A stretch of 64,000 nt of DNA from positions 11,410 through 75,409 of the IMG/VR virus record IMGVR_UViG_2721755710_000007, one strand, 5' to 3'. The DNA is from a virus. Lineage: Duplodnaviria > Heunggongvirae > Uroviricota > Caudoviricetes. The position numbers and the translations under genes are program-made. Within the stretch, counting starts at the first letter, position 1; each line of letters opens with the position of its first letter. Positions 2,600 through 43,914 of this stretch are shown here, in pieces. The notes below the pieces were generated by a model, which saw only the letters and a program-made list of their open reading frames with translations, made no database searches and was not told where the DNA came from.

Positions 2600-4052
<1,453 letters not shown>

Positions 4053-4258: not shown

Positions 4259-4275
4259 ATTGCTCTAATAATTAT
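4259..4275 (+). promoter_or_regulatory. C1 operator
   Basis: ATTGCTCTAATAATTAT, 15/17 match. Confidence 0.5.
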
Positions 4276-4318
4276 TGATTTTTATGCGCAGCTGGACGTA
4301 AACTCCTCTTCAGACCTA

Positions 4319-4352
4319 ATAACTTCGTATAGCATACATTATACGAAGTTAT
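4319..4352 (+). other. loxP recombination site
   Basis: Exact 34-bp ATAACTTCGTATA-GCATACAT-TATACGAAGTTAT. Confidence 0.97.
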
Positions 4353-4419
4353 CTTAGGGGTTATTGAACATGATCAATTTACCTGTAAATCTATACAGTT
4401 CAATACCTTATCAGGTCAA

Positions 4420-4445
4420 ATAGTGATCACTTGATCATTTGATCA
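4420..4445. promoter_or_regulatory. cluster of three GATC (Dam) sites in the cre upstream region
   Basis: GTGATCACTTGATCATTTGATCAAGG; cre promoters are Dam-sensitive in P1. Confidence 0.4.
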
Positions 4446-4770
4446 AGGTTGCGCTACGTAAAATCTGCGAAATGTTGGCAGTGTTAGTGCTCCAGATTTC
4501 GCGTAGCGCACTTAGCACCACCAATCAATCAGAGGTGAAAAATGGGATATTCAGCTGCTAAAGTGTCCACTCATCTTGAGCTTGAGAAAAATCGTGGTTA
4601 CTGGCGGGCAAAAGGGTTTGATCGTGATAGTTGTCAACTGTCATTATCGCGCGGTGAAGAAAAGATAGAACGCAGTCGCGGTCGTTGGCGTTTCTATGAC
4701 GAGAACCATAAACAGGTAAAGGCAGAGCCGATCCTGTACACTTTACTTAAAACCATTATCTGAGTGTCAA

Positions 4771-5802: not shown

Positions 5803-5819
5803 CCATTAACGCGTAAATG

Positions 5820-5836
5820 ATTGCTCTAATTCTTTG
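5820..5836 (+). promoter_or_regulatory. C1 operator-like site
   Basis: ATTGCTCTAATTCTTTG, 13/17, first 11 positions exact. Confidence 0.35.
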
Positions 5837-5852
5837 ATATTTATGGTGACAT

Positions 5853-6164
5853 ATGAGAAAGGATTTCAACATCGACGGAAAATATGTAGTGCTGTCTGTA
5901 AGCACTAATATTCAGTCGCCAGCCGTCATTGTCACTGTAAAGCTGAGCGATAGAATGCCTGATATTGATTCAATATCCGTTGCGTTCCCTGTCAAAAGTA
6001 TGCGTGGTGCTGAACATTTCGTGATGAATGCCACCGAGGAAGAAGCACGGCGCGGTTTTGCTAAAGTGATGTCTGAGTTTGGCGAATTTTTGGGGCACGT
6101 TGACAAAGCCCTCTCAATCAGTTCAGCAAGGTCCAAAGCGTTAACAGCTTCCATGATGAAATAA
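5853..6164 (+). CDS. hypothetical 103-aa protein downstream of cre (position of P1 cra)
   Basis: ORF only; preceded by an operator-like site. Confidence 0.4.
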   Translation: MRKDFNIDGKYVVLSVSTNIQSPAVIVTVKLSDRMPDIDSISVAFPVKSMRGAEHFVMNATEEEARRGFAKVMSEFGEFLGHVDKALSISSARSKALTASMMK

Positions 6165-6295
6165 AAAAAAGCCTGGCAAGGAGCCAGGCTGCACAAAAGA
6201 GCGGGTTTGTATTCCGCATCCAATCAATCAAGAAGGAGTATAGCACACAGGTACTGAAGTGAAAAAATGTGATTCGCGATAAATAAACAACTTTA

Positions 6296-6312
6296 ATTGC
6301 TCTAATTGGTTG
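6296..6312 (+). promoter_or_regulatory. C1 operator-like site upstream of ref
   Basis: ATTGCTCTAATTGGTTG, 13/17; ref is C1-repressed in P1. Confidence 0.4.
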
Positions 6313-6379
6313 ATATAATTGAGTCGCAGTTTTTGTCAACTACGAAGACGTTGCCATTACTTCACTCCTTGACATCATA

Positions 6380-6405
6380 GGCGGCCATTAGGCCGCCTTT
6401 TTTTT
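6380..6405 (+). terminator. GC hairpin plus T8 run immediately upstream of the ref start codon
   Basis: GGCGGCC-ATTA-GGCCGCC followed by TTTTTTTT. Confidence 0.4.
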
Positions 6406-6411
6406 GACCAT

Positions 6412-6972
6412 ATGAAAACAATCGAACAAAAAATTGAACAGTGCCGCAAGTGGCAGAAGGCAGCCAGAGAACGAGCGATCGCTCGGCAACGGGAGAAGTT
6501 GGCTGATCCGGTCTGGCGAGAATCTCAATATCAGAAAATGCGGGATACTATCGACCGCCGTATCGCTAAACAGAAAGAACGCCCACTAACCAGCAAAACG
6601 CGGAAAATCGCGGTAAAAATAAAATCTCGTGGCTTGAAGGGACGAACACCGACGGCAGAGGAACGGCGCATAGCCAATGCTCTTGGCGCTCTCCCCTGCA
6701 TTGCCTGCTATATGCATGGAGTAATATCTGAAGAGGTGTCTCTGCACCATATCTCCGGTCGTACCGCGCCTGGTTGTCACAATAAGCAATTGCCCCTTTG
6801 TAGATGGCACCACCAGCATGCAGCACCGGCTGAAGTAAGAGAAAAATACCCCTGGCTGGTCCCTGTTCATGCCGATGGTGTGGTTGGAGGCAAGAAAGAA
6901 TTCACCCTGCTGAACAAGTCAGAGATGGAGTTGCTGGCTGACGCCTATGAGATGGCAAATATCATGCACTAA
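6412..6972 (+). CDS. ref: Ref recombination enhancement function (HNH endonuclease)
   Basis: 186-aa ORF; Cys/His-rich HNH-like core (CIACYMHG...HHISGR...CRWHH); length and position match P1 ref. Confidence 0.8.
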   Translation: MKTIEQKIEQCRKWQKAARERAIARQREKLADPVWRESQYQKMRDTIDRRIAKQKERPLTSKTRKIAVKIKSRGLKGRTPTAEERRIANALGALPCIACYMHGVISEEVSLHHISGRTAPGCHNKQLPLCRWHHQHAAPAEVREKYPWLVPVHADGVVGGKKEFTLLNKSEMELLADAYEMANIMH

Positions 6973-7018
6973 TATATTTATTATTTTTAAAATATTGGGG
7001 CGCGTATGCCCCTGTTTG

Positions 7019-7573
7019 TTAATGTTTTTTGTCCTCTTCCAGACGAGCAACTTTTAATTGTTTGTCCGTGATAGTAAGCAATGCAACCCCTTCTTTTTCG
7101 TACAAATAACCAGCTCCATTAATCAATAATACAAACCGATCCTTTCCTCGGAATACTTCATAATACTTACCAGCACCACAGGTTTTAGTTTCAATGCAGT
7201 CCAAACCAGAGATTGCAGCCTTATCAAAGATATGGTCCTTCGTCGCAACAGGTTTCCCATACTCTTTTGTAAGCATTTCATCTAATTGCATAAAGGTATA
7301 TTTGCCAACTTTTGTTGTCATGCTCAACTCAACCTTGCCATTAATCAACATTCCTGTGGTATGTGGTTCCTGAGCGTCAGGTGACGATTTATCGTATAAT
7401 GCAAAAAGTTCTATGTCTGGAGTCCGTTTTTCAAAAGTGGCTTCGTCCTGTTCTTCAAGATAACTCTTGTCTTCACCGATAAGTGAGAGTTTATCAATCT
7501 CTGACTGGTTACACCCTGTTAACATTAGAGCCATAGCAATAGAAGCGATGATGTTGAAACTACGATTTTTCAT
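7019..7573 (-). CDS. putative lipoprotein
   Basis: 184-aa ORF with signal peptide and lipobox LTGC. Confidence 0.5.
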   Translation of the reverse strand: MKNRSFNIIASIAMALMLTGCNQSEIDKLSLIGEDKSYLEEQDEATFEKRTPDIELFALYDKSSPDAQEPHTTGMLINGKVELSMTTKVGKYTFMQLDEMLTKEYGKPVATKDHIFDKAAISGLDCIETKTCGAGKYYEVFRGKDRFVLLINGAGYLYEKEGVALLTITDKQLKVARLEEDKKH

Positions 7574-7855
7574 TAATCAATCTCCGTGATTTGTGGTCAT
7601 CAAGACCGGACGCAGGAATAGCCCAGACTCTACTACTGCAACCATATAAAAAATAATAGAAATATTGGTTTATAGCATTTTTACAGATAAAAAAATTGAC
7701 ATCTGACAAATTACTTCTGCCAAAATCACATCAAGCCCGGTACGGATGGATCCCTTTTCAAATATTCCATGGACGGCACAGTCTGAGTACCGGGCGCTAC
7801 CTTCAGTTGTATTGCTAAGCCGCCGCTGGTGGCTTTTCTTTTTTGTAGGGGCGCT

Positions 7856-8500
7856 ATGGATAAGAAAATATGCGTTGTTTCGATGAGCGTCGGCAAACCG
7901 GCGTCAATGACTGCTGCATGGATCAACAACGAGCTGATAATGGCTGATCGGACCAGCTACCCTGAACGCCGCCGCGATATGGAACTCCAGCTGCTGCGCG
8001 AATTGCGAGAAAAAGAGGAAAAGGGTTTTATCGTGCTGGTGGAAGAGGAAAACAGCTTTATTACCGGTCGAGTTGGCCAGCGTGTAAGGTTGCGCGATCC
8101 CTTCATGAACGGCAGGCCGGTACTAATTGAAGCAATGCAGATTTACAAGGAGTTGGAACGCCAGAAAGCGATCAAGTTACCGCGCAAGGAATCCGGCAAA
8201 TACATCCTCCACCAAAGCATCTTCGATTCCGAACACGATAAAAAAGGCGATGAGTTTTTCAACATCAACTGGAGCGAGATAACGACAGAGCATGTTCTAA
8301 CGTTGTTATGCTGCTTCGCAACAGAATACAACAACGTGGTAAGCGCAGACTACATCAGGACAATGACAAACACCGTTACTAAACAAGACAACGAATATTC
8401 ACCATATGAGCTATTTGTAAATATGATAAAAGCATTTTATCGGATGGAGCTCGCTAAAGTTCCTCAAGGTAAATTAACAGGTAAGGATAACATCTTTTAA
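7856..8500 (+). CDS. hypothetical protein
   Basis: ORF from ATG at 7856 (MDKKICVV...); no recognised motif. Confidence 0.4.
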   Translation: MDKKICVVSMSVGKPASMTAAWINNELIMADRTSYPERRRDMELQLLRELREKEEKGFIVLVEEENSFITGRVGQRVRLRDPFMNGRPVLIEAMQIYKELERQKAIKLPRKESGKYILHQSIFDSEHDKKGDEFFNINWSEITTEHVLTLLCCFATEYNNVVSADYIRTMTNTVTKQDNEYSPYELFVNMIKAFYRMELAKVPQGKLTGKDNIF

Positions 8501-10236: not shown

Positions 10237-10485
10237 TCAGTCAGCATTTAGTAGCAGAGCATTATCTATGATGATCTGCTCCCATTCTTCGAATGCCCGG
10301 TCGCGGACGCCCTGGGGAACGCTGTTTGTTTTGAAATCGACGACCGTCCGCCATTTCCCGTCCGGACGGTACATGCGCAGAGCTTTACTTCCCCCTTCCC
10401 TGCGCACCTCAACGTTATGCTTGTCAGCAAACTCTTGTAATGCTCGTAGCGTCCCATGCTTTACTGTGTAGTATCGCTTTTTCAA
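10237..10485 (-). CDS. hypothetical 82-aa basic protein, third gene of a three-gene operon
   Basis: Start overlaps the stop of the upstream gene by 4 bp; may be a 3'-truncated fragment because an AT-rich junction follows directly. Confidence 0.45.
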   Translation of the reverse strand: MKKRYYTVKHGTLRALQEFADKHNVEVRREGGSKALRMYRPDGKWRTVVDFKTNSVPQGVRDRAFEEWEQIIIDNALLLNAD

Positions 10486-10922
10486 GTTTTCTCTCCAGCC
10501 TGTGCCAAGGCTTCAACTTCCAAATCGTAAGACTCAAACTCATAGTCCTGGTCGTCAACTTCTTCAGGGACTGGCAGTAAATGCCAGGCTGAGTATATCT
10601 GACCATTATCAAAACGCTCCTGGCTGTAGAGCGTCGCGGCTATGAGTGTTAGCGCCGGGCGGTCATAACGGTAAAATTTGCGAACGTCACGGTCAACGAG
10701 ACGACCGAAATTACCATAACCGCGCTCCAGTAATAATTTTTTAATTTCCGGCCAGTATGGGCCATAGCTGCGGTACAGGCGGGGATTTTTCAGTAATCGC
10801 CCGCGTAGCCCTGACAGGAAGAAATCAACGTATTCGTCTTCTGTCTTTCCTAACAACGCTGTACGGAGTACCGCCTCAAGATATGTTTTATTCGGTTTTA
10901 TTGTATCAGATAGTGTGGCCAT
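10482..10922 (-). CDS. hypothetical 146-aa protein, second gene of operon
   Basis: ORF 33 bp downstream of the large gene; no recognised motif. Confidence 0.45.
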   Translation of the reverse strand: MATLSDTIKPNKTYLEAVLRTALLGKTEDEYVDFFLSGLRGRLLKNPRLYRSYGPYWPEIKKLLLERGYGNFGRLVDRDVRKFYRYDRPALTLIAATLYSQERFDNGQIYSAWHLLPVPEEVDDQDYEFESYDLEVEALAQAGEKT

Positions 10923-10955
10923 ATTATGCGACGCCCGGCGAACCGGGCGCTCCTG

Positions 10956-12887
10956 TTATGCGTATTGTTGGATGACGGCCAGAACGTCCGCCACGTTGTG
11001 TTTTGTCTCGATAATCCACCAGTTGCCCGGGAAATCGCTGTTCTTCGCCTTCGCTGGCAGCCAGCGAGCGCCGAATTTTTCCTTGATTGCGTCTTTAGCA
11101 CGGAAAAGAACGCCTTTCATGCCGGACGCCTCCTGAAGCCCAAATACCTCACCAGCGGCGAATTTTGGTGCGTACATCATCTTCAGGTCGGCGGTGGATA
11201 CGCGATAATTCAGACCAAGAGACTGAGCTATGCTGGTGGCATCACCCTGTATTGATGATAACTCTTCTTGTTTCTCGTTTCTGGCGGCAATTTCTTCCTC
11301 CGTGATGTTGCCTAGGGCCAGGTTTATCCGATCAGCGTCGGCCTGTTTCTCTTCATCGGTGCGCCCGGCAAGAACCGTGTTAATTCTCTGCAATATCTCA
11401 ACATGATTCTTGCGCATGCTAAGCAATTCCGGCGTAACCTCGTTAAGGTCCACCAGCCCAAGGATGGCAAGGTCGGAAAACATTGATACCAGGTTGTAGG
11501 TCATGCGATAGCTGAGTTGCCCATAGGCTGATGGCAACTGCACCGCATCCATTTGATAGGCATCCATAAATTTAGAGCCGTCGTTTACGACATCCGCAAT
11601 TGCCGGTGTGATTTTCCCTGTGGTGGCGGCCTCCCTGATTGCTGTTACCCACGATTGAGTCAGCGCGGCGACTGCATGATTCAGATTGGCTTTCCGTTCT
11701 GCTGCAATACGCGCGCTTGCAGCGTCCATTGCCTGCTTGATCTCGTCTTTATTGCTGTAAATGCCAATGGTGCCAAACTGTGCTGTGGTGATCTCATAAT
11801 CTGACGCCCGGAACTCATGGGTACCGAAAATGGCATTGGTGACCTCAAGTTCAGAATCCCCGTTACGAGTAGCCCCCTGGCTTGTTTTCTCCGGCATTCT
11901 GGCGATCGCATCCGCTATTGTCTCCTGAATTGCTTCAGGGGATAGCGTATCTCCGTATGACGCGATTACTTCGCCATAATTGGAGCCAAACAGTTCAGTC
12001 AGGAATACTTCTGCCAAACGGACCTGGCGGTTATTCCCTTCCGACATCATACCAAGCACCCATTTTGCAATTGACGACTTCAGCGCGCCGTCACGGCGAT
12101 CCGGGTAAACCGCATGCTTCAGTGGGTCCGTATAGGTACCAACAAAATCAATGCTATAGCCTGACTCTGTAGTCTGAACGCCGTATGAGTCAGTGATTTT
12201 GATCATGCCGCGCTGCTGGAAACGGTAGAAATCGTCACAGGAAATGATGTCGTTAATCCCGGCGATGGAGACGCCACCACTGATTTTCTGCATAACAGCA
12301 TCTTCATCGGGAGTTACATCCACCTGTTTATCCAGCGTCTTCACATCCCAGTTACCCGATTTGGTGCCTTTGAAGGTAAAGATGATCTCCACGTCTGCGC
12401 GCTGGCTGTCGAAGTCCAGCGACTTAATGCGAACGATATCACCGGCACAATCGTAGTATTGGCCTACACGCCATGAGCGATCGCCGATAACAAGGAACTC
12501 ATTCGCATGGTTAACCAGATCAGGATCAACATCCAGAATGCCTTTATTTATTGCATCCTCCACCAGCGGGCGCAGGCGTTTGATATCCGTCGCGGCCTTC
12601 TGAGTACGGTTCAATAATTTCTCATAGCGGGAGATGGCTTGAGTGATATTAGCCTTGCGCTGAATGGCGCTTTTCAACGACGCGCGATAATGTGCTAACA
12701 ACGTACGGTCTGTGTGATGGACGCTACCCCAGCGGGCCTTCCAGTCTGCATTATCAGCTGCTTTGGCCATTAACTGGAGTGCCATCAGTACCAAGAACAG
12801 GAGCACCTCCCACGCTAATAGACTGGCCCCCTGAATCTCACCGTTCTGAAACCACAACAAAAAAACATCAGGAATAAAAAACACCAC
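10956..12887 (-). CDS. hypothetical large protein (up to 643 aa), first gene of operon; true start probably internal (Met codon at 12785 or 12770)
   Basis: Long ORF; codons 17-23 are encoded by an IS2 IRL remnant so the annotated N-terminus is doubtful; no Walker or methyltransferase motifs seen. Confidence 0.5.
   Translation of the reverse strand: MVFFIPDVFLLWFQNGEIQGASLLAWEVLLFLVLMALQLMAKAADNADWKARWGSVHHTDRTLLAHYRASLKSAIQRKANITQAISRYEKLLNRTQKAATDIKRLRPLVEDAINKGILDVDPDLVNHANEFLVIGDRSWRVGQYYDCAGDIVRIKSLDFDSQRADVEIIFTFKGTKSGNWDVKTLDKQVDVTPDEDAVMQKISGGVSIAGINDIISCDDFYRFQQRGMIKITDSYGVQTTESGYSIDFVGTYTDPLKHAVYPDRRDGALKSSIAKWVLGMMSEGNNRQVRLAEVFLTELFGSNYGEVIASYGDTLSPEAIQETIADAIARMPEKTSQGATRNGDSELEVTNAIFGTHEFRASDYEITTAQFGTIGIYSNKDEIKQAMDAASARIAAERKANLNHAVAALTQSWVTAIREAATTGKITPAIADVVNDGSKFMDAYQMDAVQLPSAYGQLSYRMTYNLVSMFSDLAILGLVDLNEVTPELLSMRKNHVEILQRINTVLAGRTDEEKQADADRINLALGNITEEEIAARNEKQEELSSIQGDATSIAQSLGLNYRVSTADLKMMYAPKFAAGEVFGLQEASGMKGVLFRAKDAIKEKFGARWLPAKAKNSDFPGNWWIIETKHNVADVLAVIQQYA
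12819..12839 (+). mobile_element. 21-bp IS2 left inverted repeat remnant
   Basis: TAGACTGGCCCCCTGAATCTC identical to the IRL of the intact IS2 at 19645; similarity stops after 21 bp. Confidence 0.6.
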
Positions 12888-13385
12888 ACAAACACAGCAC
12901 TGTACCCCCCCTCATAACTGAAAAGCGCCGCCGCCCCCGCCCGAAGGGCGGGAACAACATCGCTTTTAATTATGAATGTTGTAAGTACATTGTCATCGCT
13001 GTCAGTCTTCTGGCTGGAAGTCCTCAGTACACGCTCGTAAGCGGCCCTCACGGCCCGCTAACGCGGAGATACGCCCCGACTTCGGGTAAACCCTCGTCGG
13101 GACCACTCCGACCGCGCATAAAGGCTCTGTCATGGCTGAAAACGGGTATGGCTTAGCAGGGCCGGGGGTGGGTAAGGTGAAATCTATCAGTCAGTACCGG
13201 CTTACGCCGGGCTTCGGCGGTTTTACTCCGGTATCATATGAAACAACAGAGTGCCGCCTTCCATGCCGCTGGCGCGGCATCAGGACAACTGAAGAGTGAC
13301 GGCGCACATTAACATCAAACAGACTTGTTAAGCAGTCTTTCAGGGTGTAATCTGAAGACCTGTTAAATAGTCTCAGAGGTGTGTT

Positions 13386-13637
13386 ATGCCCAGTATCATT
13401 TTGTCTGACACCAGTGCAAGCGTCAGTGAGCTGAAAAAAAATCCGATGGCAACTGTCAGTGCCGGAGAGGGGTATCCTGTTGCCATTCTTAACCGGAATC
13501 AGCCAGCATTCTACTGTGTCCCTGCTGAGCTCTATGAAAGAATGCTTGATGCCTTGGATGACCAGGAGCTGGTAAAACTGGTTACTGAACGCAGCAGTCA
13601 GCCTCTGCATGATGTGGACCTGGACAGTTATTTATGA
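13386..13637 (+). CDS. stbD: StbD/RelB-like antitoxin
   Basis: 83-aa ORF overlapping the toxin start by 4 bp. Confidence 0.75.
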   Translation: MPSIILSDTSASVSELKKNPMATVSAGEGYPVAILNRNQPAFYCVPAELYERMLDALDDQELVKLVTERSSQPLHDVDLDSYL

Positions 13638-13921
13638 CTTATACAGTAAAATTCCGGGATGATGCACTGAAAGAATGGCTCAGACTGGACAAGACCATTC
13701 AGCAGCAGTTCGCAAAAAAACTGAAAAAATGCAGTGAAAATCCTCATATAGCTTCTGCAAAACTACGTGGATTAAAGGACTGCTATAAAATCAAACTTCG
13801 CGCATCAGGTTTTCGTCTGGTTTATCAGGTTATTGATGATATGTTAATTATTGCGGTCGTCGCAGTAGGTAAACGTGAACGCAGCAACGTTTATCATCTC
13901 GCCAGTGAACGGATGAAATAA
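13634..13921 (+). CDS. stbE: RelE/StbE-family toxin (mRNA interferase)
   Basis: 95 aa; ...LRGLKDCYKIKLRASGFRLVYQVIDD...VGKRERSNVY closely resembles recalled E. coli RelE. Confidence 0.8.
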   Translation: MTYTVKFRDDALKEWLRLDKTIQQQFAKKLKKCSENPHIASAKLRGLKDCYKIKLRASGFRLVYQVIDDMLIIAVVAVGKRERSNVYHLASERMK

Positions 13922-14780
13922 TATCCTGGTCAGCACTCTTTCTTACCTGCTTCCATTTTTTCAGTGATTCTTTTCCTGCATGCAGAAAAAAAGCCTACCC
14001 TGTGGGCAGGCATAACAGACAATCGCACAGTCAGTGTTGAAATTAATGATGTCACGCATTATACCCGGTGGATACACAAACCATCCCTGCAAATGCATTG
14101 GCATCCTAATCAACGTCTGAAACAACTGCAATGGCCGGATCTGTGATTTCAGAGAAAGTTATTATGTTTATTGAATATAACCGAAGTGATAAATAAAAGT
14201 ATTATCACCTTTAATATTTATGCTTATTGCGTGGTTTTATCTGGTTATATAAAGCACAGATGTTCTTATTATTTTCTGAAAAATAACCATATGGATCGAT
14301 TTCCCCCACCCAGCCGAAGCGGTTCGGCTCGTTCGGCGTGTCGTCGACACTGAAGCGCTTATCCATTTCGTTCCAGCGGTAAGAGTTGTCGCTGTCGCTG
14401 ACGAATGCCATCGGGTCGCTAAACAGCGTGATCCGCCATGCGATCAAAAAGCGTAAGTGTTTCCGACAGACGAGCCGGTGAAAAAAGTGGTGTGTCTGGC
14501 AATACAGGCATCGTCCCCGAAATGGACGATGCCGTTGAAGGACTGGGGTATGGCAATAAGCCGCTTTATTATCGGATTCAGTGACCGCCTGGACGGTTAC
14601 TTTTGAGAAAAGGCATTTACACACAATCCTAAACAGACTCCTATATTTCAGATTTTGTTATCAACGCATTTCAAATCTCTTAGAAATCATTACTGTCGTC
14701 ATATTTTCCGAGGCAGCTCACCACCTAACTATGTTTTATCAACAATATTTTGTGAAGGATATTTATAATGTAAAGACACA

Positions 14781-17700
14781 TCAGAAACGATATTCCACAC
14801 TCAACATGGCAGATGTATTATGGTATCCATGTTCTCCAAGTTGAATGCCTGCATCAGCCCGGAATGCTACTTCTGGTGTTATCATTCCCACAACACCACC
14901 ATTTATTTCTCCGATATCACGCGCACCATCCTGGTATATACTTACACCATTCATACTGGTGCCGAAAACACGACTATTGTGCAACCAGTGTGCCTCCACA
15001 AATGGTCTGAACGGAACCGCATACCGCGTATTTTTACCGTTTTTGCTGGTAAGCCATGTTCTTGCTCCCAGGCGGGTGAGAATATTTCCGTTACCGGTAT
15101 TTTCAATACTGGTTCCGTTACTTTCATGATATTTGTCTGATTTTACATTCATCCGGACAACCTGAAGCTGCGGCTGAACATACCATTCATGACTTCCCTT
15201 GTAATTGTCGGTAAACTCTCCAGCCTTCCATGAATATCCTGCTTCCAGAGATACCGTAAACCCTTTTGACTTCCATGACTCAGCAGGCAGCCGTTCTCCA
15301 TTTATATGATTATCAAACCAGCTGTATTGCAGCCAGCTATCAAGATAAGAACCATTGTGTGTTTCATCATTGGCATACCATGTTGCATAAAGACCCGCTG
15401 TGTATCCATTCATTCTTCCTTCCGAATGGTATCCGGTGCTCAGGGCATTCGTACTGTTATTATTATGACCATAGCCAGCCATCATACCTGTATGCCAGCG
15501 ATCGGTACCATTCAGGCTCCACTGAGCTATATCTCCCCCTATTAACACAACGTAGCTATTCCCCCGGGTTCTCAGCTGACTACTGTTGTCACGCCAGCGA
15601 TTATGTTTTCCTTTATTATACATCCAGATACCTGCTTCATTTTCTTCTCCTGTCATGTGGCTGATATACAACTCCTGTCCCTGTCGTTCATACAGATTCG
15701 TTACAAACAGATTATTTGCAGCAGCAATACTGGCAACATAGCTACCTGCCTCAGGACGCAAATTATTATCATGGTTTTCCGGTACAGCTTCAGGTTGTGG
15801 TACAGGAATGTCTTTTCTGCTAATCAGATACCAGTTAGTGCTGTTAATCCCCTGACCACGTTTCAGTATGTAATCATAAGCTCCGGCTGTAATACGTTCC
15901 GTCTGAATGAATTCAGCATTATCAGCATTGCCACTGACGTGAATCACTTCAATCCCATTAAGTGTCTCTGCACCAGTACCACCGGCCTGAGTAACAGCGA
16001 CACGGGTACGGCCACTGGCATTACCTTTAATCACCAGACGATCTGTTTTCGAATTGTCACCACCTGTTTCTGTCTGGAGGAGAATAAGTCCATTTCTGCC
16101 AGTGTAATTCCCTCCGACAGTCAGTATATTACCCGGCATATATGTAGTGAGATCGACTATACCACTATTGCTCAGATTTCCTGCAACGCCCCCAAACCCG
16201 GAGAGTTTGCCCTGCTCTTCAACAATGACCTGGTTACTGCCGAGCATCACCGGTGAATCTGCGTTCCCCAGTATCACTGTCCCCTGAATAATATCTGTCA
16301 TCCCGGTCCATTTTGCGTTATCGCTAATGTTCAGTGCACCTGCTCCCGTCTTGCGAACATTACCATAACCACTGATATTGTTGGTAAGCTGCCATGCTGA
16401 TGTACTGTTCAGAGTTAATGTGCCATAGTTATCAACAAAGGCTGTCCCCAGATTATCAGCCGTGGATACAGCCAAATGAGCCCCCTTATTCACGGTAAAA
16501 ACACCGGAAAAATTACGATTATTACCCGTTATATCAAGCATTCCCCCATTTATGTTCAGAGAACCATCCCCTGCAATAGTACCTGCAGATTCTCCTCCAT
16601 TATTCAGTATCAGGCTTCCGCCATGAATGTTCAGCACAGAGCCTGCAGCCGTCAGTAGTTTGCTTATTGTCTGAGGATACCCATTCATATCCAGTTCTGC
16701 GCCACGGGATAAATATAAATACTCAGTCCGACCAAGAGCATCAGGTGCAGCAAGAATTAATACGCCAGATTTAACCTCTGTATTTCCTGTATAATTGTTT
16801 GTTGCAGAAAGTATAAGAGTACCATTACCTGATTTTGTCAGACTTTTGCCGTCCCAGCCATCATATAATAAAGGTGAAAGATTATCGGAAAGAGAAACAC
16901 CTATGTTCAGAGTGGCATCTTTTTCTATATTAAAGGTTCCATATCCCATGCCTTTTGTATTATTCCATCTCAGCATGGAGATCAGTTTGTTATCGTCGTC
17001 ATTTAAAGACGTATAAACATAACTTTCAGCACCTTCTGTCAGTAATACATTGTATTGTACAATGTGACTATTATCAGCGATCGAGATACCTGTGTCTGAC
17101 GACAATAATGTGTAATAGTCCTGAGTCCAGTTCTTAATTGATGTGTCTATATTAAGCCATGAATCACTTTTTAATGTAATAGTATTTGCGTGAACATTAG
17201 CATTTCCTACAGACAGGTTCATAGATGCGTCTTCATCAATACTTATATTTCCGTTAAAAATGGAGTTCTTGCCTGACAGATAAACAGATGAGCCATTCCC
17301 AATCATTAGCCCACCATTAATTGCTGTTGCGTTATTGATGTTTTTAATAATTAATTCATTTGTACCATTAACAGGTATACTAGCTAGTTTAATATCACCA
17401 TTAATCACAGAATCTGAATAAATATCTAATGAATTATACCCGCCAGAAAAAATTATTGATGTATTATAAGCATCTTTTTGGCTATTATATAATCCTGAAA
17501 GATTACCATGATTATTAATATGGATATCTTCTCCATAAACAGAGCAACCACCGTCGGGGCCATATCCCCCCTGAACAATACCGTTATTATTCAAAGTGAT
17601 TTGATTTCCAGAAATAGCATCTCCCCCTTGTTTTATTCCATATCCTCCAGATATCATGTTGTCGTTAGTAATGAAAAGATTACTACCATTAATACCATCA

Positions 17701-18278
17701 CCACCGTTTACGCCATTACCGCCCAATATTCCTCCGGAATTATGCACTGTAATATTGCTACCGGTTACACCGGAACCACCTGTCCCACCTACATCATCAC
17801 CTCCGTATATACTTCTGTAATTATCAACTATAATATCATCCCCGCTTAACCCTGCACCTCCGCTACTTCCTGAGCCACCAAGACCATTACCCCCATATAC
17901 ATTTCTGTAATTGTTTATAGATATTTTGTTGCCACTAACAGCAATTCCACCATTATATCCATCTCCTCCCCAAACACTACCATTATTATTTAGCGTAAAG
18001 TTTTCACCGTAGACACCTGCACCACCGATTGATGTATTGCTTGTTCCTCCTTTGATGTTAATACTGCTTTCAACAGATAGTATATTTTGAGTATAACTTG
18101 TTTTATACGGCACGCTGATATTAAGCGCCGCGTTTCCATCAACACCTGTAATACTCCTGGTTATACTTTTAGGTATACCATTACCATTCAGTTGTATTGT
18201 TTGCGCACCAGAAAAATGAGACTGCACAGAATAAATTATACTGACCAGAAATTGTAAAATTCGTATATTCTTATTCAT
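14781..18278 (-). CDS. autotransporter adhesin (AIDA-I/TibA/Ag43-like)
   Basis: 1165 aa; signal peptide, glycine-rich ~19-aa passenger repeats, C-terminal beta-barrel ending ...SVEYRF; AT-rich. Confidence 0.75.
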   Translation of the reverse strand: MNKNIRILQFLVSIIYSVQSHFSGAQTIQLNGNGIPKSITRSITGVDGNAALNISVPYKTSYTQNILSVESSINIKGGTSNTSIGGAGVYGENFTLNNNGSVWGGDGYNGGIAVSGNKISINNYRNVYGGNGLGGSGSSGGAGLSGDDIIVDNYRSIYGGDDVGGTGGSGVTGSNITVHNSGGILGGNGVNGGDGINGSNLFITNDNMISGGYGIKQGGDAISGNQITLNNNGIVQGGYGPDGGCSVYGEDIHINNHGNLSGLYNSQKDAYNTSIIFSGGYNSLDIYSDSVINGDIKLASIPVNGTNELIIKNINNATAINGGLMIGNGSSVYLSGKNSIFNGNISIDEDASMNLSVGNANVHANTITLKSDSWLNIDTSIKNWTQDYYTLLSSDTGISIADNSHIVQYNVLLTEGAESYVYTSLNDDDNKLISMLRWNNTKGMGYGTFNIEKDATLNIGVSLSDNLSPLLYDGWDGKSLTKSGNGTLILSATNNYTGNTEVKSGVLILAAPDALGRTEYLYLSRGAELDMNGYPQTISKLLTAAGSVLNIHGGSLILNNGGESAGTIAGDGSLNINGGMLDITGNNRNFSGVFTVNKGAHLAVSTADNLGTAFVDNYGTLTLNSTSAWQLTNNISGYGNVRKTGAGALNISDNAKWTGMTDIIQGTVILGNADSPVMLGSNQVIVEEQGKLSGFGGVAGNLSNSGIVDLTTYMPGNILTVGGNYTGRNGLILLQTETGGDNSKTDRLVIKGNASGRTRVAVTQAGGTGAETLNGIEVIHVSGNADNAEFIQTERITAGAYDYILKRGQGINSTNWYLISRKDIPVPQPEAVPENHDNNLRPEAGSYVASIAAANNLFVTNLYERQGQELYISHMTGEENEAGIWMYNKGKHNRWRDNSSQLRTRGNSYVVLIGGDIAQWSLNGTDRWHTGMMAGYGHNNNSTNALSTGYHSEGRMNGYTAGLYATWYANDETHNGSYLDSWLQYSWFDNHINGERLPAESWKSKGFTVSLEAGYSWKAGEFTDNYKGSHEWYVQPQLQVVRMNVKSDKYHESNGTSIENTGNGNILTRLGARTWLTSKNGKNTRYAVPFRPFVEAHWLHNSRVFGTSMNGVSIYQDGARDIGEINGGVVGMITPEVAFRADAGIQLGEHGYHNTSAMLSVEYRF

Positions 18279-18325
18279 ACTGTTTTTTCTTTAGTGATGC
18301 ATTTTTTATCAACCTGGATTTGCCC

Positions 18326-19231
18326 CTATATTTCCAGACACCTGTTATCACTTAACCCATTACTGGCTTGCTGCCGTAGATATTCCCGTGGCGAGCGATA
18401 ACCCAGTGCACTATGCGGATGCCATTCGTTATAATGCTCGAATGCCTCTGCAAGGTTCTTTGCTGCCGTTAACCCGTCTGGTTTGGGCATGACACTGATG
18501 TAGTCACGCTTTATCGTTTTCACGAAGCTCTCTGCTATGCCGTTACTCTCCGGACTCCGCACCGCCGTGTTCTTCGGTTCAAGCCCCAACATCCGGGCAA
18601 ACTGCCGTGTTTCATTAGCCCGGTAGCATGAACCATTATCCGTCAGCCACTCTACTGGAGACGCCGGAAGCTCGTTGCCGAAACGGCGTTCCACCGCTCC
18701 CAGCATGACGTCCTGTACTGTTTCACTGTTGAAGCCGCCCGTAGTGACCGCCCAGTGCAGTGCCTCACGGTCACAGCAGTCCAGCGCGAACGTGACTCGC
18801 AGTTTTTCTCCGTTATCACAGCGGAACTCGAACCCGTCAGAGCACCATCGCTGATTACTTTCTTTCACAGCCACTCTGCCGGTATGTGCCCGTTTCGATG
18901 GCGGTACAGCGGGTTTTCGCTCAAGCAACAGCGCATTCTGGCGCATGATCCGGTAAATACGTTTGGCATTGATCGCAGGCATACCATCAAGTTCGGCCTG
19001 TCTGCGAAGCAGCGCCCATACCCGACGATAACCATACGTGGGCAGCTCTCCGATAACATGGTGTATACGGAGAAGCACATCCGTATCATCTGAGTGACGG
19101 CTGCGGCGACCATCTTTCCAGTCATCGGTTCGTCTGAGAATTACGTGCAACTGCGCACGCGACACCCGGAGACAACGGCTGACTAAGCTTACTCCCCATC
19201 CCCGGGCAATAAGGGCGCGTGCGCTATCCAC
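18326..19231 (-). CDS. insD: IS2 OrfB transposase
   Basis: 301-aa IS3-family integrase-core ORF. Confidence 0.9.
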
Positions 19232-19554
19232 TTTTTTGCACGCCCGTATTCAACGGCTTCTTTAAGGAGTTCATTTTCCATCGTTTTTTTGCCGAGCAGG
19301 CGCTGGAGTTCTTTAATCTGCTTCATGGCAGCAGCAAGTTCAGAGGCAGGAACGACCTGCTCTCCTGCGGCCACAGCAGTAAGACTTCCCTCCTGGTATT
19401 GCTTGCGCCAGAGAAATAACTGGCTGGCTGCCACACCGTGTTGCCGGGCAACAAGGGAGACCGTCATTCCCGGTTCAAAACTCTGCTGAACAATAGCGAT
19501 CTTTTCCTGTGTAGTACGCCGTCTGCGTTTCTCCGGTCCTAAGACATCAATCAT
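19189..19554 (-). CDS. insC: IS2 OrfA
   Basis: Starts [24 protein letters not shown]; overlaps OrfB as in IS3-family frameshift arrangement. Confidence 0.85.
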
Positions 19555-19759
19555 CTGCTCTCCAATGACTAGTCTAAAAACTAGTATTAAGACTATCACT
19601 TATTTAAGTGATATTGGTTGTCTGGAGATTCAGGGGGCCAGTCTAATTTATTATAGAGTATATATATGTACTGCGTTTAAATCATGAAGACGACAACCTG
19701 TTTTACATAAATTATTCCTAAGTATTTTTCCAGAGAAGACCTAGGTATAATGATGTGCA

Positions 19760-20527
19760 GGTAATGACTCCAACTTATTGATAGTGTTTTATGTTCAGAT
19801 AATGCCCGATGACTTTGTCATGCAGCTCCACCGATTTTGAGAACGACAGCGACTTCCGTCCCAGCCGTGCCAGGTGCTGCCTCAGATTCAGGTTATGCCG
19901 CTCAATTCGCTGCGTATATCGCTTGCTGATTACGTGCAGCTTTCCCTTCAGGCGGGATTCATACAGCGGCCAGCCATCCGTCATCCATATCACCACGTCA
20001 AAGGGTGACAGCAGGCTCATAAGACGCCCCAGCGTCGCCATAGTGCGTTCACCGAATACGTGCGCAACAACCGTCTTCCGGAGACTGTCATACGCGTAAA
20101 ACAGCCAGCGCTGGCGCGATTTAGCCCCGACATAGCCCCACTGTTCGTCCATTTCCGCGCAGACGATGACGTCACTGCCCGGCTGTATGCGCGAGGTTAC
20201 CGACTGCGGCCTGAGTTTTTTAAGTGACGTAAAATCGTGTTGAGGCCAACGCCCATAATGCGGGCAGTTGCCCGGCATCCAACGCCATTCATGGCCATAT
20301 CAATGATTTTCTGGTGCGTACCGGGTTGAGAAGCGGTGTAAGTGAACTGCAGTTGCCATGTTTTACGGCAGTGAGAGCAGAGATAGCGCTGATGTCCGGC
20401 GGTGCTTTTGCCGTTACGCACCACCCCGTCAGTAGCTGAACAGGAGGGACAGCTGATAGAAACAGAAGCCACTGGAGCACCTCAAAAACACCATCATACA
20501 CTAAATCAGTAAGTTGGCAGCATCACC
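19760..20527 (-). mobile_element. IS1 copy 2
   Basis: 768 bp identical in ORF content to copy 1 (insB 19775-20278, insA 20197-20472); no 9-bp duplication. Confidence 0.95.
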
Positions 20528-20563
20528 CTTAAGAAGATCGCCCTGAAATTCATCAAATAATCC

Positions 20564-21286
20564 TTAGCGGCGTTTACCAGACAGTTCCGCAGCAATATAA
20601 GCCTGCACGCTTTTGTACTGTTTTACCTTTTCGATAAACTCATCGGGACTGTAAGCACCTTTTACACGACGGGATACGTTAAGTGTTTTCTTAACCCGTT
20701 CGATATACATGTTGAGACTTCGAATAATATTGTGCGCCATTACGTTGTAATCGCTAACCGGTAATTGACCCAGAGAGTTGAATTTGTACATCTGGGTCAG
20801 AAGGTTGTTCATTTCAAAGATGTGCTTATAAAAACGCATTGTATTTTGATTGTTGAAGTTTAACTGGACCGATTCAAATCGGAACGGAGAAAACTCAGTT
20901 GATGAGAAGAATGGATCACTTTCATCAACGTGAATAGTGGCGATATGATGTTCCAGATTCTCCTTCATTAAATTATTTTCGTCGTGCAATTCATTAAACC
21001 AGTCCTGAATTGCCTGCACCAATTCGGGGTGCCTTACCGCATTAACCGTCCTGAATAATGATGAAATAGCAATACTTACATCATCAAAGCCTCTAATTAC
21101 GGAACGATTCCGAGCCGTAAGGAAACGGTTAAAATCGGGAGTACCTGGCTTAATGGTTACTGTGGCCATGCCGTAAAGTTCATTTTTACTTTGCACGACT
21201 TTTCGGGTATTGTCAGATGCCTGAGAGGTGCGGGCATTTACATCAGGAGTTTTCTGCTCGGTTTCATTTATTGATACGTCGGTCAT
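20564..21286 (-). CDS. hypothetical 240-aa protein, second gene of two-gene operon
   Basis: ORF; start overlaps upstream gene stop by 4 bp; no recognised motif. Confidence 0.5.
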   Translation of the reverse strand: MTDVSINETEQKTPDVNARTSQASDNTRKVVQSKNELYGMATVTIKPGTPDFNRFLTARNRSVIRGFDDVSIAISSLFRTVNAVRHPELVQAIQDWFNELHDENNLMKENLEHHIATIHVDESDPFFSSTEFSPFRFESVQLNFNNQNTMRFYKHIFEMNNLLTQMYKFNSLGQLPVSDYNVMAHNIIRSLNMYIERVKKTLNVSRRVKGAYSPDEFIEKVKQYKSVQAYIAAELSGKRR

Positions 21287-21768
21287 TGTGCCACCTCATA
21301 TTTTGAGTATTTACGGATTTTCCGTCCCAGTTTGATATATGCAGCATGATAGAATTCAAGTAATTCTCTGTAGGGTTCCAGTAATCCCTCCGTTTTTTCG
21401 ATCATTTCATATTCCCAAGACGCGTGATTAACAAAGCAGCTTTTTGAATATTTTCCGTTTTTCATCGCAGAAACCCGTTTCGACATATAGCTGGGTGCCC
21501 TGGTTTTAAACGGACTGAACTTATGCCAGGTGATAGTGACTTTTTTCGCATTACCAATTAATTCTAGTTTCGGTGCATACGAACCCAGATACTCACGTTT
21601 TAGTGTATTGCTAGGCCGGGGTAAATTAATCTCCAGATGATTCCGTTCTTTCCACTCGATCCAGTAATTTGTACACAAGTCTTCAGCCTCCTCCCGCAGA
21701 GCCTCGATTTGTGAACGCATTAAGCTGCGCGATAATTCAAGTGACTTTATTAGTTTCGAATTAGACAT
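21283..21768 (-). CDS. hypothetical 161-aa protein, first gene of two-gene operon
   Basis: ORF; lysine-rich; no recognised motif. Confidence 0.5.
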   Translation of the reverse strand: MSNSKLIKSLELSRSLMRSQIEALREEAEDLCTNYWIEWKERNHLEINLPRPSNTLKREYLGSYAPKLELIGNAKKVTITWHKFSPFKTRAPSYMSKRVSAMKNGKYSKSCFVNHASWEYEMIEKTEGLLEPYRELLEFYHAAYIKLGRKIRKYSKYEVAQ

Positions 21769-22035
21769 GTGACCTCCTGATGTGAAATCACTATACCGAA
21801 GTGGTTTTTATTTTTTTTCACAAACAGGACTTTTTTCAGTGATTTTTTTCTGAGAATTATGAGGGGCGTGTCGTTGGTGCGATGCATACCGATAGTGAAT
21901 AACACCAGATGAGCTCGGGAACGGCATAGCGGGGTGTACTTATGTTCGGCAGAAAAGTAGCTTTTTCTGCAATGGGTATTCCTGATCCGGTGATTTGAAA
22001 AGTGCTGTTTTACTTACTAAGTTATACATATATCT

Positions 22036-22197
22036 AGTGCCACTTTTTAATCAAAAGTGACCCTAGGTTTTTTGCGCATAGTGCCACTTTTTAAAAAAGT
22101 GACCCTATGTCCTGTCTACATAGGGTCACTTTTCACAAAGAAGTGACCCTATGTCGAGGCTCCATAGGGCCACTTTTCAGCAAAAAGTGACCCTATG
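22036..22197. repeat. array of eight copies of a ~14-bp motif (AAAAGTGACCCTATG) in alternating orientation
   Basis: Copies at 22036, 22054, 22080, 22097, 22121, 22141, 22163, 22185 forming four or more inverted-repeat pairs. Confidence 0.8.
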
Positions 22198-22780
22198 TAA
22201 TAGCCATTGTTAATCAATCGGAAAAATATTCATGCTAGCTCGCTCTTATCGCTAAGGTTATTGCTGCTTTCTGCCGATAACAGTGCAAGTTTTGCGATTT
22301 TTTTAAGCGCTTCACAGTTCGTTAGCAAGCTCAGTTTTTTTTGATAAAATTCTGGTCAGTTTGTTTAAAAAGTGTTACAAGTAAGGCGAATGGTTGAATG
22401 GTTAGTTTTAAGACTCAAATCGGCAGTATTAAAATTCCAAAAGTAGCTTTTCATACTTCAAAAAACCAAACTTTAATTTCATGTAGAAGAGTTGTACTAT
22501 TGTATTGACTCAAGGACAATCCGACATGTCAGAATCAGATAACATAACGCGTAACTATTACGTACCGAGGTTTCGATTATTCGTAGTTACCGTGCATTCC
22601 TAATGTTATTGCCTATCCATGATCTTCTTCGTATCAATCAGGGTCTCCACTCTTGCAACGCCGTCTATTTGGAGACGGATTTGGGACAATGACTGATAAT
22701 GCATTTGAAGTTGAAACTCGTCCGGGAAGTTTCCTCGTTCCACGTTCTTTAGGCAAAGAGATTTCCTGGGATAATTTTTT

Positions 22781-23311
22781 ATGGCTGTTGTCGATGGTGA
22801 CACTAACGTTATTCGAGAATATGACAGTGACGATGCTGACTTCGGTATTTACAATGCTGGGGAAAAAGTTACTTTACTGTGTGGCCGGGAAGACTTTTAT
22901 AATCCGACAAAAATTCAGCAGTTACGCTCTAAGTGTGTAGATATACAAAATGATTACTTTATTCAAATCTTCTTTATGTCAATGCTTGCACCTGAGTTTG
23001 TCAGCATATTTTTTGGATTAAAGCCTGCCACCGCAGATGCAATAAAAGATGTTGGCGTTTCATCACTTAAAGCAATTAACGATGTTGTTCTCTTTCCGCG
23101 AACAATTGCCTTTACGCCAGGACTGGGGGATGATAGCACTACGTTAAAATCTAAAGTATTCGCCAGGGCATACGAATTATCTGCCGACATTCGTTTGGGT
23201 AAAGTTAGTGATGACTTAATGGAACTACTGCGTTACGACACTATGTTTACGTGTCACCGTCAGGATGTGTTTAACTCATTAGCAAATAAAGTGCTCTTGA
23301 AGGATTATTGA
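22781..23311 (+). CDS. hypothetical acidic 176-aa protein
   Basis: ORF only; stops 7 bp before IS1 copy 3. Confidence 0.3.
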   Translation: MAVVDGDTNVIREYDSDDADFGIYNAGEKVTLLCGREDFYNPTKIQQLRSKCVDIQNDYFIQIFFMSMLAPEFVSIFFGLKPATADAIKDVGVSSLKAINDVVLFPRTIAFTPGLGDDSTTLKSKVFARAYELSADIRLGKVSDDLMELLRYDTMFTCHRQDVFNSLANKVLLKDY

Positions 23312-23317
23312 ATATGG

Positions 23318-24085
23318 GGTAATGACTCCAACTTATTGATAGTGTTTTATGTTCAGATAATGCCCGATGACTTTGTCATGCAGCTCCACCGATTTTGAGA
23401 ACGACAGCGACTTCCGTCCCAGCCGTGCCAGGTGCTGCCTCAGATTCAGGTTATGCCGCTCAATTCGCTGCGTATATCGCTTGCTGATTACGTGCAGCTT
23501 TCCCTTCAGGCGGGATTCATACAGCGGCCAGCCATCCGTCATCCATATCACCACGTCAAAGGGTGACAGCAGGCTCATAAGACGCCCCAGCGTCGCCATA
23601 GTGCGTTCACCGAATACGTGCGCAACAACCGTCTTCCGGAGACTGTCATACGCGTAAAACAGCCAGCGCTGGCGCGATTTAGCCCCGACATAGCCCCACT
23701 GTTCGTCCATTTCCGCGCAGACGATGACGTCACTGCCCGGCTGTATGCGCGAGGTTACCGACTGCGGCCTGAGTTTTTTAAGTGACGTAAAATCGTGTTG
23801 AGGCCAACGCCCATAATGCGGGCAGTTGCCCGGCATCCAACGCCATTCATGGCCATATCAATGATTTTCTGGTGCGTACCGGGTTGAGAAGCGGTGTAAG
23901 TGAACTGCAGTTGCCATGTTTTACGGCAGTGAGAGCAGAGATAGCGCTGATGTCCGGCGGTGCTTTTGCCGTTACGCACCACCCCGTCAGTAGCTGAACA
24001 GGAGGGACAGCTGATAGAAACAGAAGCCACTGGAGCACCTCAAAAACACCATCATACACTAAATCAGTAAGTTGGCAGCATCACC
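23318..24085 (-). mobile_element. IS1 copy 3
   Basis: 768 bp; insB 23333-23836, insA 23755-24030; same orientation as copy 2; no duplication. Confidence 0.95.
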
Positions 24086-43865: not shown

Positions 43866-43914
43866 ATTACTTTTTCCGAATTATGTAGATAGTTTTTATA
43901 AGTGATGATAACTA

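Follow-up and report, generated by a model that had tools for sequence, protein, structure and literature searches.

A 21-bp IS2 end beside accessory cargo in a P1-derived plasmid is most probably the scar of a lost insertion

What does a short but perfect end of an insertion sequence record when it stands beside accessory genes? In the 64,000-nt stretch of DNA analysed here (the window), the sequence TAGACTGGCCCCCTGAATCTC lies on the plus strand at 12819-12839, and its exact reverse complement at 19625-19645 forms the outer 21 nt of a minus-strand IS2 at 18315-19645. The plus-strand 21-mer is identical at 21/21 positions to the left inverted repeat (IRL) of this resident IS2, flush from the outermost base (position 1). 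When up to three mismatches were allowed, the 64 kb contained just two matches and 100 shuffled sequences contained none. The original prediction, a perfect rightward IS2 IRL facing the IRL of an intact IS2 at 19645 across ~6.8 kb, is therefore borne out as a description. It had gone on to propose that an IS2-mediated event delivered the toxin-antitoxin and autotransporter genes between these ends. The features needed to follow the argument are these:

10956-12801, minus strand: 3' remnant of P1 darB, recognised by P1 homology and annotated as a 'helicase-related' or 'DEAD/DEAH box helicase' pseudogene
12802-13280, plus strand: origin-region block of the IncI complex, without an adjacent rep gene (91.9% identity to IncI1 pNF1358 1854-2330)
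12814-12818, plus strand: GCTAA, probably the left copy of a 5-bp target duplication that survived the loss of an IS2 (from the L008 sequence)
12819-12839, plus strand: probable IS2 left-end (IRL) scar (perfect 21/21 IRL match; full-IS2 precursor in L008 and L009)
13386-13637, plus strand: Phd/YefM-type antitoxin, first gene of the pair at 13386-13921
13634-13921, plus strand: RelE/StbE-type toxin, second gene of the pair
14781-18278, minus strand: aatA-type AIDA-family autotransporter adhesin gene (3498 bp, 1165 aa)
18315-19645, minus strand: intact IS2 (1331 bp), with the right inverted repeat (IRR) at 18315 and the IRL at 19645

The backbone resembles P1-like phage-plasmids with accessory cargo (P1, P7, RCS47), sharing cre-ref-mat-lxc-ulx-darB synteny at 96-98% identity; window 10241-12772 is 98.2% identical to P1 9754-12285, and P1 sequence resumes from window 24068 onward. 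In place of ~28.5 kb of P1 (14438-42919, from the 5' part of darB into sit), the window has 11.3 kb of accessory DNA, and the element has probably ceased to be a complete phage. Within the darB remnant itself, 2121 bp are deleted, the junction lying at 12771/12772 (positions 4274-6394 of the related record L003 are missing from the window). We considered the scar as an edge of this deletion and rejected the idea, given that the junction shows ~2 bp of microhomology and lies 47 bp to the left. P1 homology stops at L003 6425, corresponding to window 12801. The adjoining block matches a segment of pNF1358 situated between repA (455-1486) and yacA (2395) and is 90.9% identical to IncK2/Z pE2855-1; the IS2 target and a native, IRL-like 19-mer both fall within the first 38 nt of the block. 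The true left edge of the cargo is thus not the scar but 12801/12802, 17 bp further left, where P1 darB meets the IncI-type origin block.

Plasmid records present this junction in three states. In the native state (S0), CACGCTAA is followed by CGCGCGGGCCCCGAATCTC, the native allele of the 19-mer, and by ACCG. In S1, a complete 1331-bp IS2 accompanied by the 5-bp duplication GCTAA stands flush against the native 19-mer, as in L008, which reads CACGCTAA, IS2, GCTAACGCGCGGGCCCCGAATCTC; the copies in L008 and L009 measure 1331 bp, share 98.7% identity with the window copy and have GCTAA on both sides. S2, the state of the window, is S1 less exactly 1334 bp, with the crossover within a shared GAATCTC. 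The S1 structure, with its GCTAA duplication and retained native 19-mer, had been predicted from S0 and S2 and was found afterwards; one example is NZ_LR130553 at 72.8-74.3 kb. PLSDB holds 131 S0, 14 S1 and 22 S2 records, and complete E. coli genomes in RefSeq ~138, 16-17 and 20, respectively; a pattern scan of IMG/VR returned two loci only, both with the native allele. The block with the native 19-mer has matches in 786 plasmid records, IncI1 and IncK2/Z origin regions among them, and we take the native allele to be ancestral. Near-identical versions of the site (GACCCTC, GAACCTC) occur on IncI1 and IncK plasmids.

With a full IS2 sitting at precisely this junction in L008 and L009, sequence comparison identifies the 21-mer as a true remnant of an IS2 left end rather than a conserved piece of another element. 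The IS2 origin proposed for it accordingly holds, while its link to the intact IS2 through a single event does not. The inner 15 bases of the 21-mer were in large part already there: 13 of them (GG.CCCC..GAATCTC) pre-existed in the native sequence. The demonstrably IS2-derived part amounts to ~14 nt (12819-12832), the remaining GAATCTC (12833-12839) being common to IRL positions 15-21 and the native sequence and holding the crossover. Only IRL positions 1-21 are retained, and most of the transposase-binding domain, defined by the transposase footprint on residues 16-41 (PMC3299598), is gone, which argues against the proposal that the 21-mer could serve as a transposing end. A promoter scan at the scar found no promoter-like site. 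Given the missing binding part and the lack of a newly created promoter-like site, the scar is probably inert.

The darB deletion orders the states. It is present in all S1 records, which share one common backbone, and in 21 of the 22 S2 records in PLSDB, and is combined with S0 in none of the PLSDB records, a distribution that nests S2 within the S1 lineage. One pair, L010 (S2) and L008 (S1), have in common the darB deletion as well as the right-hand IS2 insertion with its duplication GATAC. At the site itself, exactly 1334 bp separate them, and their alignment overlaps by 15 nt at the repeat; the 7.7 kb to the right of the site contain 4 mismatches. These observations bear on the idea that S0 was converted directly to S2 by an abortive, IR-targeted IS2 attack involving branch migration and gene conversion, with no full insertion in the window's lineage. 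For IS30, gene conversion of targeted inverted repeats has been documented (Olasz 2003, as cited in PMC9333248), and a converted tract would end at the limit of homology, position 21. We nevertheless regard direct conversion as very improbable: S2 has the unique 2121-bp darB deletion in common with S1, never with S0, L010 and L008 differ essentially by IS2 alone, and a real S1 insertion with a normal duplication means that an ordinary insertion did happen at this site.

One record stands apart. L012 is the sole S2 record with an undeleted darB remnant, although the remnant is deleted in every S1 record, and the intermediate thereby predicted (an undeleted remnant together with a full S1 IS2) occurred in 0 of 5426 RefSeq genomes. 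L012 would be accounted for by two or more identical losses that occurred independently, by a crossover inside the 47 bp, or by an unsampled lineage; that the intermediate is unsampled also speaks for direct conversion. A further observation concerns the window, which combines the left side of the S1 lineage with a right-hand IS2 of the L003 type and so also requires recombination between plasmid lineages. Both sit less easily with a simple descent through insertion and loss.

The history that very likely produced the 21-mer is the insertion of an IS2 copy at 12819 and its later deletion by recombination between its real IRL and the adjacent IRL-like native sequence. The native 19-mer matches IRL positions 7-21 at 13 of 15 bases, with native positions 5 and 7-12 equal to IRL positions 5 and 7-12 and exactly in register with the duplication boundary. 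Under this history, a P1-derived plasmid would first have acquired the ancestral CACGCTAA CGCGCGGGCCCCGAATCTC ACCG within the IncI-type origin block, a sequence state that is itself sampled, its resemblance to the IRL being fortuitous. IS2 would then have inserted in the plus orientation with the normal 5-bp duplication GCTAA seen in PLSDB and RefSeq, bringing its right end to 5 bp from the tip of the 19-mer, in register, and turning the real IRL and the look-alike into direct repeats (GGCCCCCTGAATCTC and GGGCCCCGAATCTC) 1336 bp apart. Finally, a deletion between these repeats, with the crossover in GAATCTC, would have removed 1334 bp and kept one repeat; we infer this route from a product that the records contain. 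The loss would comprise IS2 positions 22-1331, one GCTAA and the first 12 nt of the look-alike, and the remainder would read flank, IRL 1-21 and ACCG.

The precursor's own 5-bp duplication marks it as a simple insertion. Transposition gives copy-out/paste-in elements such as IS2 no means of excision. For insertion sequences of this type, an IS-free state arises only via rare illegitimate recombination (PMC9333248). The most likely route of loss is RecA-independent slippage or microhomology deletion by the host, of the 'nearly precise excision' type.

From sequence alone, host slippage and a transposase-assisted reaction look the same. The latter would run through the same three states, with IS2 targeted to the IRL-like 19-mer, as in the IR-targeting of IS30 and IS911; the arrangement of IRR, 5 bp and pseudo-IRL would then act as a surrogate IR-IR junction, whose reaction with the real IRL excises the element in a manner resembling 'dimer dissolution' and leaves a hybrid IRL. 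Several features speak for it. The tip of the IRR faces an IRL-like tip, an IRL-IRR orientation exclusive to IR-targeting (PMC9333248); the look-alike keeps exact register with the duplication boundary and, at up to two edits, is the only match to IRL 7-21 in the window besides the real IS2 (0.23 expected per 64 kb); and identical scars on at least two backgrounds suggest an efficient reaction. Despite its 13/15 match, register and right orientation, however, the look-alike covers IRL 7-21 only and lacks most of the binding domain, and the 5-bp spacer with an ordinary duplication departs from the 1-bp spacer (2 bp in vitro) of IS2 junctions (PMC3299598). Hundreds of IncI/IncK plasmids carry near-identical sites and IS2 was found in none of them; a chimeric query of IRR, GCTAA and IncI1 sequence matched known S1 phage-plasmid records only, and no recurrent independent IS2 insertion at the same or a homologous look-alike site appeared among the records searched. 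An IRL-like flank is likewise absent at the other three IS2 insertion sites of these loci, and ascertainment bias enters as well, as a scar is possible only for insertions adjoining a microhomology. On balance, we consider a transposase-driven series unlikely. The same low weight falls on its fullest version, in which a native mimic of IS2's left-end cleavage domain attracted the element and afterwards stood in for a real end while transposase assisted the loss, so that the scar arose repeatedly.

Did IS2, then, bring in the genes between the two ends? The toxin-antitoxin pair is the one found after the origin block in IncK plasmids. The aatA-type protein has an autotransporter beta-domain and an autochaperone domain and equals the published aatA in length; its gene is 99.8% identical to copies from records whose descriptions name engineered E. 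coli variants or NEBExpress, which we take to be B-strain derivatives. Across complete E. coli genomes, aatA was present in 687 of 5426, mostly in the chromosome (486 of 735 places). The whole cargo (origin block, toxin-antitoxin pair and aatA) is collinear in L006 and L007, which have the native site and IS2 at neither position, and in L001, which has the native site and IS2 elsewhere. By this comparison, the cargo predates both IS2 features.

A single IS2-mediated event that imported the toxin-antitoxin and autotransporter cargo, with the IRL remnant and the intact IS2 as its two ends (by IRL-IRL or one-ended transposition, as a composite transposon, or through an IS2-mediated deletion), is therefore close to excluded. 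It draws on the bracketing of the cargo by two inward-facing IRLs, on IS2-like sequences reported 5' of aatA (PMC2944236) and on S1 relatives in which two complete, inverted IS2 copies flank the toxin-antitoxin pair and aatA with their IRLs outermost, much like an IS2 composite transposon. Searching for the cargo beside IS2 and comparing junctions did recover relatives with IS2 on both sides, alongside the IS2-free L006 and L007. Unlike in a composite transposon, the two IS2 copies of the S1 relatives stand in separate duplications (GCTAA and GATAC), the cargo is older, and the unit shows no sign of having moved. In the window, different 5-bp sequences adjoin the two IRLs on the outside (GCTAA at 12814-12818, ATTTA at 19646-19650), and hence there is no duplication of a composite unit. 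Nor do scar and intact IS2 behave as paired ends, since the scar co-occurs with three right-hand configurations: an empty site (L011, L012), an IS2 at another site (L010, ~25 bp further right and with its own duplication GATAC) and the window's IS2. The mostly chromosomal location of aatA and the cargo edge at the darB/IncI-origin junction also count against a single event. For the toxin-antitoxin pair and the adhesin, no consequence of the scar or the IS2 finding is evident.

The right-hand IS2 is an independent insertion, unlinked to the scar. Its ORFs exceed the curated cut-offs for IS2 TnpB (709.7 bits against 597) and IS2 TnpA (275.8 bits against 229). A 5-bp target duplication is absent at this copy (flanks CAACC and ATTTA), having been lost together with 134 bp of adjacent DNA that IS2-free relatives retain and that the element replaces. 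The pattern would fit an insertion with a later deletion next to it, or recombination of one IS2 copy with another. An origin from the L008-type insertion was rejected, since DNA would have to be lost on either side and 36 positions distinguish the two copies.

Solo inverted-repeat remnants are known from bacterial transposons such as Tn10 and Tn5, as is 'nearly precise excision', a RecA-independent deletion across short direct repeats located at, or close to, the ends of the element; in the classic cases both repeats lie within the element or its duplication. The present case shares with them a two-repeat precursor, the exact loss of the intervening DNA, a single hybrid repeat and a scar of the terminal element. 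Here, by contrast, only one repeat belongs to IS2, lying within its IRL, and the second is native DNA beyond the element that resembles the IRL by chance; natural precursor and product are both sampled. As for targets, Sengstag et al. in 1983 reportedly described a hot one for IS2 in P1. IR-targeting by IS30 and IS911 (PMC9333248, which cites Loot et al. 2002) likewise places an end beside a sequence resembling its own inverted repeat, in IRR-to-IRL orientation, but here a normal duplication puts 5 bp between the two, the transposase-binding domain is missing from the look-alike, and the lack of recurrence at homologous IncI/IncK sites leaves targeting as suggested only.

The event is a tidy case of an already known kind, and in this sense the finding is ordinary. 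It does caution that a short, perfect IS end beside cargo is no delivery boundary without a comparison of empty and occupied sites. The clean natural series from native site through insertion to scar illustrates how a copy-out/paste-in element can be lost near-tracelessly when it stands beside a look-alike of its own end, and it hints, in a testable way, that IS2 may choose targets under the direction of its ends. If the transposase-assisted reading were true, the series would be a natural record of IR-targeting and 'dissolution' by IS2, so far experimental in IS30 and IS911.

The window carries a P1 backbone: positions 4336-8365 correspond to P1 cre-ref-mat and 10241-12772 to lxc-ulx-darB, at 94-98% identity. 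P1 homology stops at 12801 and restarts at 24068 inside P1 sit; 11.3 kb of accessory DNA (12802-24067) stands in place of ~28.5 kb of P1 (14438-42919). The replaced segment comprises the 5' part of darB, prt, pro, the lysis genes, the darA operon, cin, head, tail fibre and baseplate genes, and part of sit. The P1-derived plasmid can probably not make phage particles. Elsewhere, two clusters of 19-bp GATGTGTGCTGGAGGGAAA-type repeats (42720-44025) presumably resemble P1 plasmid-replicon iterons, and we take scattered ATTGCTCTAATAAAT motifs (4259, 29152, 30813, 46379) to resemble P1 C1 operator sites. The accessory DNA contains an IncI-type origin block, a Phd/YefM-RelE/StbE pair, pseudogene debris, the autotransporter gene aatA, IS2, and two direct IS1 copies around a MobI-like gene.

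Insertion sequences of the window and features inside the direct IS1 pair
2351-3119, IS1, inverted; one of three copies in the window
18315-19645, minus strand, IS2 of 1331 bp; IRR at 18315, IRL at 19645
19760-20527, IS1, first of the direct pair
20564-21286, minus strand, 240-aa ORF without a family match
21283-21768, minus strand, MobI-family gene
22035-22200, array of ~44-bp palindrome-rich repeats
23317-24085, IS1, second of the direct pair

The direct IS1 copies enclose a 2.8-kb segment in what looks like a composite transposon, and the 9 bp flanking the arrangement in the window show no obvious match between sides.

The original prediction of a perfect 21-bp IS2 left end facing that of an intact IS2 was correct as a description. 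The plus-strand sequence at 12819-12839, TAGACTGGCCCCCTGAATCTC, recurs as its exact reverse complement at 19625-19645, the outer end of the intact IS2 (TnpA ORF, 275.8 bits versus a cut-off of 229; TnpB ORF, 709.7 versus 597). A search allowing up to three mismatches returned only these two matches in the 64-kb window, and 100 shuffles gave none.

Among related plasmids in PLSDB, RefSeq and IMG/VR, the left site occurs in three states. The native state S0 (loci L001, L003, L006 and L007) reads ...CACGCTAA CGCGCGGGCCCCGAATCTC ACCGTT..., and already matches the 21-mer at 13 of its 15 inner bases before any IS2. The occupied state S1 (L008, NZ_LR130553; L009, pTB422) reads ...CACGCTAA, a complete IS2 in plus orientation, then GCTAA CGCGCGGGCCCCGAATCTC ACCGTT...: a normal insertion with a 5-bp duplication, leaving a native IRL-like 19-mer 5 bp from the IRR tip, in register. 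The scar state S2 (the window, L002 and L010-L013) reads ...CACGCTAA TAGACTGGCCCCCTGAATCTC ACCGTT.... S1 was predicted from S0 and S2 beforehand and then recovered with a chimeric query from 14 PLSDB records and 16 RefSeq genomes. PLSDB has 131, 14 and 22 records of S0, S1 and S2, respectively, and the complete E. coli genomes of RefSeq about 138, about 17 and about 20.

Removing 1334 bp from S1 gives S2, and the crossover falls in GAATCTC, a stretch that the native 19-mer has in common with IRL positions 15-21. The scarred L010 and the occupied L008 share both a deletion in the darB remnant and the right-hand IS2 insertion, and differ by 4 mismatches over 7.7 kb to the right of the left site and by exactly 1334 bp at it (alignment overlap, 15 nt). 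IS2 transposes by copy-out/paste-in, the donor copy staying in place. An IS-free state arises only through rare illegitimate recombination (PMC9333248). The simplest reading, inferred from S1 and S2, is that a host-mediated deletion between direct repeats, of the 'nearly precise excision' type, would yield S2; the repeats in S1 are 7 bp perfect, 13/15 when extended, and spaced 1336 bp. The IS2 transposase protects residues 16-41 (PMC3299598). Because the scar retains only IRL positions 1-21, and a promoter scan found no promoter-like site created there, its sequence is probably inert.

As to the order of events, S0 is ancestral, since the origin block that starts with the native site matches 786 plasmid records, and S1 cannot derive from S2 because it retains the native 19-mer. 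A 2121-bp deletion in the darB remnant occurs in all S1 records, 21 of 22 S2 records and no S0 record; since this unique deletion follows S1 and S2 but never S0, S2 descended from S1, not straight from S0. The deletion (3 x 707 bp; 4274-6394 of reference L003) has its junction at 12771/12772 (window 12765-12778), with only ~2 bp of microhomology, and in the collections searched was confined to plasmids that have IS2 or the scar at a distance of 47 bp, and absent from those with the native allele. Not being flush with the IS2 end, it is no classical IS-adjacent deletion; the association reflects either a mechanistic link or merely shared descent.

The single scarred plasmid with an undeleted darB remnant is L012 (p13QT31-2). 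Compared with L003 it has densely spaced SNPs as far as position ~5392 and hardly any beyond, across scar and cargo, so its right part derives from a donor in which an undeleted remnant was combined with IS2 or scar. As every sampled S1 carries the deletion, L012 requires one of three histories: the identical loss happened independently two or more times, a crossover fell within 47 bp, or a lineage has gone unsampled. No S1 intermediate with an undeleted remnant was found in RefSeq.

That IS2 was directed to the IRL-like native 19-mer is a minority possibility. The 19-mer is the sole match within two edits of IRL 7-21 in the window besides the real IS2 (~0.23 expected per 64 kb), and the S1 insertion lies at its exact tip in IRR-to-IRL orientation, a hallmark of IR-targeting in IS30 and IS911 (PMC9333248). 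However, an ordinary 5-bp duplication forms the spacer, the binding domain is missing from the look-alike, hundreds of IncI/IncK plasmids have near-identical sites with no IS2 found there, and the remaining IS2 sites in the compared loci have no IRL-like flank. Scars, moreover, can form only where an insertion adjoins microhomology, which biases the view.

Left and right sites in the window and relatives
Window and L002: darB remnant deleted; scar; IS2 at right-hand site R
L003: remnant intact; native; same site-R IS2 as the window
L010: remnant deleted; scar; IS2 ~25 bp further right, duplication GATAC
L011: remnant deleted; scar; no right-hand IS2
L012: remnant intact; scar; no right-hand IS2
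L001: remnant intact; native; right site empty, a third site (window ~14760) carries IS2
L006: remnant intact; native; no IS2
L007: remnant intact; native; locus ends within aatA, no IS2 in the part covered

The window IS2 lacks a target duplication (flanks 18310-18314 and 19646-19650), and 134 bp of the empty site (L001 13273-13406), present in IS2-free relatives, are missing there; the L010 copy differs from it at 36 positions. The L001 IS2 lies just downstream of aatA. Altogether, the window and its relatives have four independent IS2 insertion sites within ~6 kb. Composite, one-ended or IRL-IRL delivery of the bracketed cargo, as originally proposed, is unsupported because the cargo is collinear across IS2 states, IS2-free relatives included (window, L001-L003, L006, L007, L010-L012), and the outer 5-bp flanks of scar IRL and intact IRL differ. 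The scar occurs with and without a right-hand IS2; the two are unrelated, and the scar had no role in cargo delivery.

The cargo itself begins with the origin block (12802-13280), adjoining the darB remnant and 91.9% identical to IncI1 pNF1358. More broadly, its counterpart in IncI1 and IncK2/Z plasmids, at 91-92% identity, lies downstream of the replication gene (in pNF1358 at 1854-2330, between repA, 455-1486, and yacA, 2395); the 19-mer there differs little, with GACCCTC or GAACCTC instead of GAATCTC. No IncI rep gene lies alongside; the block may be a non-functional relic acquired with the neighbouring toxin-antitoxin pair. The spacer between toxin gene and aatA (13922-14780) contains gene debris: for the homologous part of L008, RefSeq lists a fragment of an alkaline phosphatase and a hypothetical gene with a frameshift. 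This spacer was also hit by IS1 in L011 and L012 and by IS2 in L001. The autotransporter gene (14781-18278) has the published aatA length of 3498 bp; across the window and L008-L012 it measures 3498, 3516, 3534 or 3555 bp, and these increments of 18-21 bp suggest varying repeat numbers in the passenger domain. Of 5426 complete E. coli genomes, 687 carry aatA, with 486 of its places on chromosomes and 249 on plasmids. Copies in records labelled engineered E. coli variants or NEBExpress, which we take to be B-strain derivatives, are 99.8% identical. These observations are in line with Dai et al. 2010 (PMC2944236); IS2 and IS91 sequences 5' of aatA were also noted in that study.

The 21-mer is thus a real IS2 scar of unusually well documented origin, and its formation an event of known kind. 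Experimental proof of end-directed targeting or transposase-assisted loss would add modest significance.
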